Origin: an uncultured Bacilli bacterium
GTDB taxonomy: Bacteria; Bacillota_I; Bacilli_A; RF39; UBA660
Assembly: GCA_947623685.1 (NCBI GenBank)
Contig: CANQHF010000003.1
Span: 7,321 to 71,320, forward strand
Length of the DNA stretch: 64,000 nucleotides
Direction: 5' to 3'
In this document: positions 48,208 to 61,303 of the stretch, in pieces
Layout of the letters: each line of letters starts with the position of its first letter
Position numbering within the stretch: the first letter of the stretch is position 1
Notes under the pieces: model-generated
Seen by the model: only the letters and a program-made list of their open reading frames with translations
The model's database searches: none
What the model was told of the DNA's origin: nothing
Program-made: the position numbers and the translations under genes

Positions 48208-48559
48208 GTTTTTACGTAAACGCTGCTAAAATTTTTAGTAGAGGAAAGTCCACGCTCACACGATTCCTGTGATCGGACGTAGTGTTCATGCAAAGGGAAT
48301 AAATAACCTTTGGTAGGTTAAACCTAACGGCGCCGAAGTAACCTATAGTCTTTTTGATATGGTTATGGTAGGCATAAAGTGCCATAGTGACGATTTTTTT
48401 AGGAAACTAAAAAAGTGGAACGGGTAAACCCCATGAGTGAGAAACCCAAATTTGGTAGGGGAACCCTTACGAAGGAAACGAACGGAGTAAGGGATGCTTT
48501 AATGCATAGATAAATGTTTACGACCAAGCAATTGGTACAGAACGTGGCTTATTAAAACC
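48208..48559 (+). ncRNA. rnpB: RNase P RNA (type B, Firmicute-type)
   Basis: GAGGAAAGTCCACGCTC, GTGCCATAGTGACG, GGTAAACCCCATGAGTGAGAAACCCAAATTTGGTAGGGGAAC and ACAGAACGTGGCTTA blocks. 5'/3' ends pair (GTTTTTACGTAAAC ... GTTTACG ... TTAAAAC). Sits directly after gpsB, as in Bacillus. Ends are approximate. Confidence 0.85.
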
Positions 48560-58590: not shown

Positions 58591-58785
58591 ATGAATAATA
58601 ACGAAATATTAAATGAGAAAATGATACAAGAAAAAATAAAAAAAGTTAACGGGGCTATGGCACAAGAGGGTATGCCATTAACTAAAGAATTAAAACAAAA
58701 ACTTTATAATTGTATAATTGGTAGAACTACAACGGAAATAGAAAGAAAAAAAATAATAGAAAAATATAGAGGTCTTTATGGATAA
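58591..58785 (+). CDS. VbhA-like small antitoxin (orphan)
   Basis: About 64 aa with a VNGAMAQEGMPLT segment resembling the VbhA inhibitory helix. The position normally S/T is Ala. The expected downstream Fic gene is reduced to ATGGATAAATAA. Confidence 0.4.
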   Translation: MNNNEILNEKMIQEKIKKVNGAMAQEGMPLTKELKQKLYNCIIGRTTTEIERKKIIEKYRGLYG

Positions 58786-58897: not shown

Positions 58898-58926
58898 TTG
58901 TTATATAAACAATTGTTTGGTATAAT
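58898..58926 (+). promoter_or_regulatory. sigmaA-type promoter of the type I toxin mRNA
   Basis: TTGTTA (58898-58903), 17-nt spacer, extended -10 TGgTATAAT (58918-58926). Confidence 0.5.
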
Positions 58927-58991
58927 TATTTTAGGAACATTTAATGTGAGTGTTGCCCTCCAATCTTGAAAAAGAAGGGGGGTAGATATTA

Positions 58992-59084
58992 ATGAAAACC
59001 AAAACCTTTATCGTAAAAGTTCTGAGGCTCATTGCTATCATTTTGTTACTTTCTACCTTACTGGTGTTAGCAATAAAAAAATAG
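58992..59084 (+). CDS. 30-aa hydrophobic peptide, type I toxin candidate
   Basis: MKTKTFIVKVLRLIAIILLLSTLLVLAIKK. G6 Shine-Dalgarno at 58977-58982, 9 nt before the ATG. Not in the ORF track. Confidence 0.55.
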   Translation: MKTKTFIVKVLRLIAIILLLSTLLVLAIKK

Positions 59085-59207
59085 ACACTCAATCAGCATT
59101 GATCGAGTGTCTCTTCATTGATTGAGTGTTAAACTCAGTTTAAGAGGCGACATTCACTTGCGAATTTAAATGTTCCTCTTTTTTTATTATATGCAAGGTT
59201 TCTTGCT
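59075..59207 (-). ncRNA. candidate antisense antitoxin RNA convergent with the toxin mRNA
   Basis: The minus-strand promoter at 59214-59242 points into the toxin 3' UTR. On the minus strand the hairpin AGACACTC/GAGTGTCT (59083-59112) is followed by T7. Ends are inferred. Confidence 0.45.
59143..59185 (+). terminator. terminator of the toxin mRNA
   Basis: AGAGG(C)GACATT ... AATGTTCCTCT long hairpin followed by T7. Confidence 0.6.
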
Positions 59208-59213
59208 AAATAC

Positions 59214-59242
59214 ATATTAACATAAATGCGTGATTTTGTCAA
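59214..59242 (-). promoter_or_regulatory. near-consensus sigmaA promoter on the minus strand
   Basis: The minus strand reads TTGACA (59242-59237), 17-nt spacer, TAATAT (59219-59214). Confidence 0.55.

Positions 59243-59278: not shown

Positions 59279-61303
<2,025 letters not shown>

Follow-up and report, generated by a model that had tools for sequence, protein, structure and literature searches.

A probable type I toxin-antitoxin module upstream of ligA points to a new family in uncultured gut Bacilli

INTRODUCTION

In a 64,000-nucleotide stretch of DNA from an uncultured Bacilli bacterium (contig CANQHF010000003.1; this whole stretch is called the window), we found a 345-bp block (positions 58898-59242) in which the gene of a 30-residue membrane peptide faces the convergent gene of a predicted antisense RNA. 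Judging from its architecture and its evolutionary pattern, this block quite probably represents a type I toxin-antitoxin module on the chromosome, with the 3' overlap known from Firmicutes, and would be the first locus to be recognised from a new family. The module is a real and strongly conserved genetic unit. It had been proposed as a type I candidate in an earlier reading of the window that used the letters alone (the sequence-only reading), and our computational tests support this proposal throughout. The family described here lies within a known kind of system, and the concept of type I systems is unchanged.

Type I systems are hard to detect by homology and are known from few phyla, mostly from cultured model species (PMC12390103, PMC8594479). 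T1TAdb, for instance, was built on the cultured genomes of 218 species (PMC8594479). The present family is relevant for specialists in RNA regulation and toxin-antitoxin systems and for the annotation of uncultured gut Bacilli.

RESULTS

Conservation of the block

When we reread the sequence with the help of the ORF (open reading frame) list and a consensus scan, every element named in the sequence-only reading was found where it had been placed (Table 1), and the limits given to the block coincide with the conserved ends at the two -35 boxes. The 20-mer AGGAACATTTRATGTGAGTG, which represents the 5' end of the mRNA, had exact matches in the genomes of at least 119 GTDB species and in 118 metagenome contigs. 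Almost all carriers are low-GC uncultured gut Bacilli. Their records are titled uncultured Bacilli, Tenericutes, Erysipelotrichaceae or Mycoplasma sp.; further carriers are Firmicutes CAG:822, Clostridium sp. CAG:433, Mycoplasma sp. CAG:611 and Ca. Coprovivens, and the samples were taken, among others, from the gut of humans, rabbits, ruminants, mice and chickens. An nhmmer profile search through the fetched loci yielded 52 more matches that do not contain the exact 20-mer, among them 16 full-length diverged copies and some partial modules only. The sequence-only reading was to be given up if the ORF and the complementary segments were not conserved in relatives, but we observed the opposite: hundreds of loci conserve the ORF, both promoters, a hairpin between the Shine-Dalgarno sequence (SD) and an anti-SD segment, a helix joining the 5' and 3' ends of the mRNA (the clamp) and the antisense terminator. 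Conservation spans the region from the -35 box on the plus strand to the -35 box on the minus strand and collapses just outside both, and these limits indicate that selection acts on the whole segment of about 345 bp from one promoter to the other.

The module also occurs in tandem arrays that repeat every 340 bp or so, and one array can mix subtypes. Examples are L050:3813-5104, L196:1878-2850, L177:27-1025 and L019:1438-2789, with three copies in L196 and four matches in L050, the last of which is partial. In L050, a diverged subtype stands behind one copy of the 30-residue type, with two complete copies and a partial one; this subtype encodes a 27-residue peptide (MSKKDFLISILLTVIILLIALLFIVLK; type M[SN]KKDF...); in these diverged copies the RNA scaffold is unchanged and the clamp sequence is different. 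A second module copy was not found within the 64-kb window. Many of the 20-mer matches lie at contig ends, often within 200 nt (e.g. L026, L042, L051, L058, L087), which suggests that near-identical multi-copy modules break short-read assemblies. Some module contigs had been binned as Muribaculaceae, Roseburia or Cyanobacteria, and most of those checked have a GC content of 24-31%. These contigs (L012, L020, L022, L030-L032, L038) are probably mis-binned low-GC Bacilli, and the module could be used as a marker for such bin contamination. The Chitinophagaceae-labelled L039 (44% GC) may be a chance match. Viral contigs contained no match to a degenerate N-terminal pattern of the peptide or to the 20-mer, so that carriage by phages is unsupported, and plasmids gave no match by tblastn of the peptide or blastn of the locus.

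The peptide and its coding constraint

The peptide MKTKTFIVKVLRLIAIILLLSTLLVLAIKK consists of 30 residues with one predicted transmembrane helix, Lys/Arg-rich ends and a net charge of +6. Its core is an uninterrupted hydrophobic stretch of at least 16 residues with a mean Kyte-Doolittle hydropathy of 3.2. It is thus a small (<60 residues) hydrophobic protein with a predicted transmembrane helix, and 68 distinct peptide variants keep this property. An ORF of 29-31 codons is present in 157 of the 182 unique complete modules (exactly 30 codons in 153), and the consensus reads MK[TK][KR]TFI[IV]KVL[RK]LIAIILLL[SL]TLLV[LI]AIK[KI] with conservative substitutions. For 100 unique 30-codon sequences, the entropies of the three codon positions were 0.50, 0.36 and 0.76, the third position being the most variable, and the proportions of synonymous (pS) and nonsynonymous differences (pN) were 0.43 and 0.15, respectively (pN/pS 0.35). 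These sequence comparisons indicate that the peptide is under purifying selection. In about 14% of the module copies the ORF has a frameshift, a truncation or no ATG start, which would be expected for a family with decaying copies.

The 30-codon gene is missed by gene callers or its boundaries are misplaced in the assemblies examined. An exhaustive phmmer search with the 30-residue peptide retrieved nine matches (83-97% identity), all of them ORFs with wrongly called boundaries, and the complete module is present on two of the corresponding contigs. In L001 the gene is uncalled, and an exact-product look-up did not find the 30-residue peptide on record as a called gene product.

A short, cationic (+6) and helical peptide might also be an exported or leaderless bacteriocin-like or lytic peptide, the antisense RNA serving as an expression brake that protects the producer, and leaderless bacteriocins are similar in size. 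However, the hydrophobic core described above is typical of a membrane anchor and not of an amphipathic secreted peptide, and no conserved transporter, immunity or modification genes adjoin the modules. We therefore consider a bacteriocin-like function very improbable.

Predicted folding of the mRNA

The sequence-only reading had postulated that the 5' end of the toxin mRNA pairs with its 3' end, and both the sequence and the predicted fold bear this out. AGGAACATTTAA (58933-58944) and TTAAATGTTCCT (59166-59177) form 12 perfect base pairs, and the pairing extends from 58945-58952 to 59155-59162; a run of seven T (59179-59185) comes after the 3' arm. For the window clamp a duplex energy of -30.1 kcal/mol was calculated. 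The mRNA segment 58933-59190 folds at -79.3 kcal/mol compared with -50.1 +/- 4.2 kcal/mol for shuffled sequences (z = -6.9; none of 200 shuffles was as good), and the minimum-energy structure includes both the 5'-3' helix and the CCUCC-SD hairpin. The local anti-SD/SD hairpin (-15.8 kcal/mol) corresponds to the masking of the SD by CCCTCC that had been suggested before, and it is kept across the family. Thermodynamic prediction and covariation thus suggest an mRNA structured to restrain translation. The mRNA predicted for typical family members (225-235 nt) is shorter than that of the window.

Across the family, the cognate clamp arms average -33 kcal/mol as compared with -11 +/- 3 kcal/mol for shuffled arms. 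The 3' arm AGAGGCGACATTCACTTGC...AAATGTTCCTC-Tn is nearly invariant, and subtypes with other arm sequences retain the clamp at -28 to -38 kcal/mol. In one diverged clamp the 5' arm AGGGAATATCAGTTGTTGAGTGTCTACC faces the 3' arm GGTAGACATTCAAC...AACTGAATGTTCCCT, and in a second one GGGAAAAACTTAACAGTTGAGTGC faces GTACTCAAC...TGTTAAGTATTTCCC. Covariation was quantified in an alignment of 96 homologous mRNAs (alignment A2). Here, L020, a typical member, supplied the reference fold because a window-specific insertion shifts the register of the stop-codon hairpin in the window's own fold. Standard pairs occupy 91% of the A2 cells compared with 39-53% when the partners were slid, and 38 pairs were changed on both sides versus 24.3 +/- 2.6 in shuffles, none of 500 of which reached this number. 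Compensatory changes were detected in the 5'-3' clamp and in the stop-codon hairpin. At columns 13/357, the degenerate R position of the clamp, GC (42), AU (32) and GU (18) pairs were counted. With its frequent G-U pairs, the clamp is specific to the plus strand. In the anti-SD/SD helix (helix 3 of A2), 93.8% of the cells are paired, and eight of its nine pairs change by one-sided C-to-U wobbles; its outermost pair shows four two-sided changes. Variation almost exclusively by wobbles would be expected if the SD itself is fixed.

The predicted probability of an unpaired SD is about 0.2 (37 members). When the 3' untranslated region (UTR) was masked in the models to mimic antisense binding, this probability went from 0.20 to 0.15, while the unpaired probability of the 5' end rose from 0.07 to 0.48. 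An antisense-driven change in SD accessibility, as is the case with SR4, was considered and dropped on these values; since the SD is paired with or without the antisense RNA in the models, we do not claim translational control by the antitoxin.

The extra hairpin of the window (about 59113-59146) is absent from L010, L011 and more than 90% of the members, and comparable insertions at this place are seen in L129, L183 and L184. Here the 3' stem arm of the stop-codon hairpin seems to have been duplicated in part (TTGATCGAGTGTC and TTGATTGAGTGTT), and owing to this partial duplication 59085-59095 could pair with either 59100-59110 or 59119-59129.

Promoters and the predicted antisense gene

The window has a GC content of 25.8%, and a consensus scan detected 16 promoter-like sites where 16.2 were expected from shuffles; terminator-like sites numbered two versus 0.3 expected. 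Because promoter-like sites occur at chance density in such AT-rich DNA, promoter matches alone prove nothing, and the promoter calls are based on conservation across the family. A plus-strand promoter (TTGnnn-16/18-TAnnnT) is present at the matching position in 136 of 160 members, with TTGTTT and TATAAT as the commonest boxes. On the minus strand, TTGnnn-(16-18, mostly 17)-TAnnnT was found in 148/160 members, with the TG extension in 140. The latter promoter, which the sequence-only reading had located at 59242-59214, thus has a conserved position: it stands 28-31 nt from the T-run of the mRNA, its boxes across the family are TTGACA or TTGAAA and TATTAT or TAATAT, and it is kept in all diverged subtypes. 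It is nearer to the consensus than the toxin promoter (mostly TTGTTT...TATAAT), and this stronger predicted activity fits the usual excess of antitoxin RNA.

The hairpin 59112-59083 with its T7 (-14.8 kcal/mol) scored as terminator-like on the minus strand only, and the consensus scan thereby agrees with what had been read from the sequence. The terminator of the antisense RNA is the stop-codon hairpin itself (helices 10-11 of A2, which show compensatory changes), and the U-run of the antisense RNA complements the A7 that encodes the C-terminal Lys-Lys and abuts the stop codon. With a predicted promoter and a predicted terminator at fixed, conserved positions in 148 of the 160 members, the locus may well carry a cis-antisense gene. 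Its predicted RNA folds with z = -6.0, measures about 110 nt in most members, and complements the last codons and the entire 3' UTR of the mRNA. The predicted overlap of the two RNAs amounts to about 110 bp in the window (59075-59185) and to about 95 bp in typical members. RNAs of the 3'-overlapping type I systems of B. subtilis overlap at their 3' ends by about 100-140 bp (PMC6562991), which agrees with the predicted overlap. The layout of the module as a whole also matches these systems as described (PMC6562991). At the other end of the antisense RNA, the stem of a small stem-loop covaries (CAAG/CTTG, GAAG/CTTC, GAGA/TCTC). In 76 of 101 members the minus-strand version of this stem-loop is the more stable one, and GAAA is its commonest loop; we infer that it forms the protective 5' end of the antisense RNA.

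Table 1. Predicted elements of the module in the window
Feature	Positions	Strand	Details
Toxin-mRNA promoter	58898-58926	+	-35 TTGTTA 58898-58903, 17-nt spacer, extended -10 TGgTATAAT 58918-58926
Predicted toxin mRNA	58933-59185	+	about 253 nt; ends deduced from promoter and T-run
Clamp 5' arm	58933-58957	+	pairs with 59146-59177
Anti-SD/SD hairpin	58954-58984	+	CCCTCC 58956-58961 with G6 Shine-Dalgarno 58977-58982
30-codon ORF (MKTKTFIVKVLRLIAIILLLSTLLVLAIKK)	58992-59084	+	ATG 58992, TAG ending 59084
Predicted antisense-RNA terminator	59074-59112	-	hairpin 59112-59083, then T7
Extra 3' UTR hairpin	59113-59146	+	lineage-specific insertion, -8.7 kcal/mol
Clamp 3' arm and T-run	59146-59185	+	arm 59146-59177, T7 59179-59185; presumed mRNA terminator
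Small 5' stem-loop of predicted antisense RNA	59193-59206	-	GCAAG-N4-CTTGC, beyond mRNA-shared region
Antisense-RNA promoter	59214-59242	-	TTGACA 59242-59237, 17 nt, extended -10 TGtTAATAT 59222-59214
Predicted antisense (antitoxin) RNA	59075-59207	-	about 133 nt, from promoter and terminator; predicted start A at 59207

Genomic context

The window derives from a metagenome-assembled genome. The block is located in a 540-bp gap between a 64-residue ORF and ligA (59324-61303), and the LigA protein is 83-86% identical to proteins of uncultured Bacilli, one of them assigned to Candidatus Aphodocola (Bacillota; Bacilli incertae sedis). The ligA gene of five relatives is preceded by other DNA, with recA, a YhcG-like gene or pgm but no module, and the module of the window therefore lies in a variable region. 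The segment 55244-58785 of the window encodes a 636-residue double-acetyltransferase/ASCH fusion, a NUDIX hydrolase, a 236-residue M9/MA-peptidase-like protein and the 64-residue ORF; it is not syntenic with the closest relatives (L005-L009), and the downstream genes (AMP-binding enzyme and others) are conserved. The region upstream of ligA looks like a variable region or an island junction. The 64-residue ORF (58591-58785), which immediately precedes the module, comes with a good SD and a promoter. Its classification as a VbhA-like antitoxin was discarded (no Pfam or NCBIfam match), as was its classification as a paralogue of the 64-residue ORF downstream of ligA (no BLASTP similarity). At 48208-48556 the window encodes a bacterial RNase P RNA of class B (285 bits), in line with an origin from Bacillota.

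In about 160 loci the neighbouring genes are diverse, the largest cluster being an AddA-like helicase (15 loci), and no recurrent transporter, immunity, integrase or transposase gene was found beside the modules. A tRNA gene lies within 300 nt of 64 of the 231 modules (28%) compared with about 8% of random positions in the same loci. Examples are L010:665-738 and L011:1094-2803; in L011 the module borders directly on ten clustered tRNA genes. This enrichment, the multi-copy modules at contig ends and the chance density of promoter-like sites would all be in line with a repeated or mobile element of non-coding DNA, or with a block that terminates transcription in both directions, in which ORF and promoters are incidental. 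However, ORF length is kept, and the pN/pS ratio and the variable third positions given above speak against a non-coding element; moreover, G-U pairs tie the clamp to the plus strand, both promoters remain at fixed positions even in diverged subtypes, and neither terminal inverted repeats nor transposase genes were seen beside the modules. An incidental ORF in a repeat is thus hardly credible.

Searches for known families

According to the sequence-only reading, the peptide could be placed in no named family, and our searches led to the same result. Pfam and NCBIfam, which we assumed to include models for Fst and Ldr, were scanned with the window peptide and 28 family members, and no match came near any cut-off. 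With a reporting limit of E up to 1 (up to 10 for the window peptide), the best sub-significant matches were MgtR (E = 0.08) and TimP (E = 0.41). A profile search of the PDB and a search for peptide strings in the searchable literature library gave no match. Nothing in the locus reached the gathering score of an Rfam family; the best candidate was rli28 (21 bits versus a cut-off of 45), mainly over the promoter. The peptide thus gave no significant match to the profiles of the TxpA/BsrG, BsrE/BsrH, Fst/Ldr, Hok, Ibs, TisB or TimP families or of other curated toxin families.

The weak, non-significant resemblance to MgtR and the failure to match any curated toxin family leave room for a conserved non-toxic membrane micropeptide of the MgtR or AcrZ type, with a regulatory or accessory role and a level tuned by the cis-antisense RNA, in particular since coding constraint and RNA features indicate function and not toxicity. 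However, a conserved partner gene is absent beside the modules, and the double translation lock together with the stronger antisense promoter are hallmarks of toxin control (PMC6562991). Tandem arrays, the decayed copies (about 14%), patchy presence in close relatives and varied, unrelated neighbours fit the signature of a selfish, addiction-type module better. For these reasons, we consider a non-toxic micropeptide rather unlikely.

DISCUSSION

We propose the following scenario for the putative type I module. A moderate promoter would drive an mRNA of about 250 nt for a cationic single-helix membrane peptide. Its first 20-25 nt would pair with the last 30 nt before the T-run, so that the clamp buries the 5' end, and CCUCC right after the 5' arm would pair with the GGAGG/GGGGGG Shine-Dalgarno; clamp and SD masking together might make the message stable and poorly translated. 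From the opposite strand, a near-consensus extended -10 promoter would produce an antisense RNA of about 110-130 nt, which should start with the protective stem-loop, fully complement the 3' UTR, the clamp's 3' arm included, and terminate just past the toxin stop codon. In B. subtilis, RNase III cleaves the duplexes of txpA/RatA, bsrG/SR4, bsrE/SR5 and yonT/SR6, and decay of the mRNA is promoted by the antitoxin (PMC6562991). By analogy, the two RNAs would form a duplex of about 100 bp that may be a substrate for RNase III. Duplex formation would strip the 3' arm from the clamp and open the 5' end to 5'-dependent decay, with the SD still masked. Once the antisense RNA is exhausted, the stable mRNA would permit synthesis of the peptide, and membrane damage or growth arrest might follow. 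Thus, we infer from the B. subtilis analogy that the antitoxin mainly promotes decay, and clamp opening may add a 5'-end-dependent component.

A more far-reaching version of this scenario can be formulated, but taken as a whole we regard it as doubtful. It holds that the family represents an undescribed type I lineage of uncultured low-GC host-associated Bacilli, in which the RNA chassis of about 345 bp is the duplicating unit, forms the tandem arrays, inserts preferentially beside tRNA genes and carries diverging cargos (30-residue MK[TK][KR]TF... and 27-residue M[SN]KKDF... peptides), and that the antitoxin acts mainly by prising open the clamp for 5'-end decay rather than by blocking the ribosome-binding site.

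Several observations weigh against the assignment as a toxin-antitoxin module. The peptide matches no known toxin family, the promoters were called from their conservation only, and the two RNAs as well as toxicity are deduced from architecture and evolutionary pattern. A small membrane protein may be controlled by an antisense RNA and yet be harmless. In our models the SD is masked irrespective of the antisense RNA; processing as in hok or aapA1 would be one possible way of opening it for translation. Finally, the conservation of the 5' arm is partly built in because the loci were retrieved via an exact 20-mer inside this arm, so that its covariation is based on the R position and the 16 diverged copies only.

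The locus gives access to a type I-like family that at least 119 species-level genomes from uncultured gut Bacilli carry. Its hundreds of natural variants in several subtypes have provided a covariation-supported model of a clamped mRNA with a 3'-overlapping predicted antitoxin. It could improve annotation, explain assembly breaks at repeats and offer a compact regulatory RNA device.

Comparison with known systems

In hok/sok of enterobacterial plasmids and aapA1/IsoA1 of Helicobacter pylori, the full-length mRNA is inert and stable via a 5'-3' interaction and SD sequestration, and AapA1 consists of 30 residues. Their antisense RNAs overlap the 5' or translation-initiation region and act on the 3'-processed mRNA. 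These systems share the lock of clamp plus masked SD with the present module, whereas the predicted antisense RNA covers the 3' UTR here, and phyla and peptides differ. The fst/RNAII system (par of pAD1) of the Fst/Ldr superfamily is, like our module, a Firmicute system in which transcription converges and the short toxin has a single helix. The RNAs of par have a bidirectional terminator in common and contact each other through 5' direct repeats, and the scans of our peptides against Pfam and NCBIfam gave no significant match to this superfamily. TxpA/RatA and yonT/SR6 have a 3'-overlapping antisense antitoxin, similar to the predicted layout, but their toxins are about twice as long (58-59 residues) and have no sequence relationship to the module described here.

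By architecture, bsrG/SR4 and bsrE/SR5 are the closest systems. These prophage-borne modules form a 5'-3' helix (P1) whose 3' strand is contacted by the antitoxin, as predicted for our clamp, their SD is partly or fully sequestered, and their toxins are hydrophobic peptides of 30-38 residues, comparable to the 30-residue peptide of the window (PMC6562991). In contrast to bsrG/SR4 and bsrE/SR5, with which no peptide or RNA sequence similarity is detectable, the modules of the new family are not located on recognisable prophages. They are often arranged in tandem and near tRNA genes, in our models their SD is fully masked even when no antitoxin is present, and their hosts are uncultured low-GC gut Bacilli.

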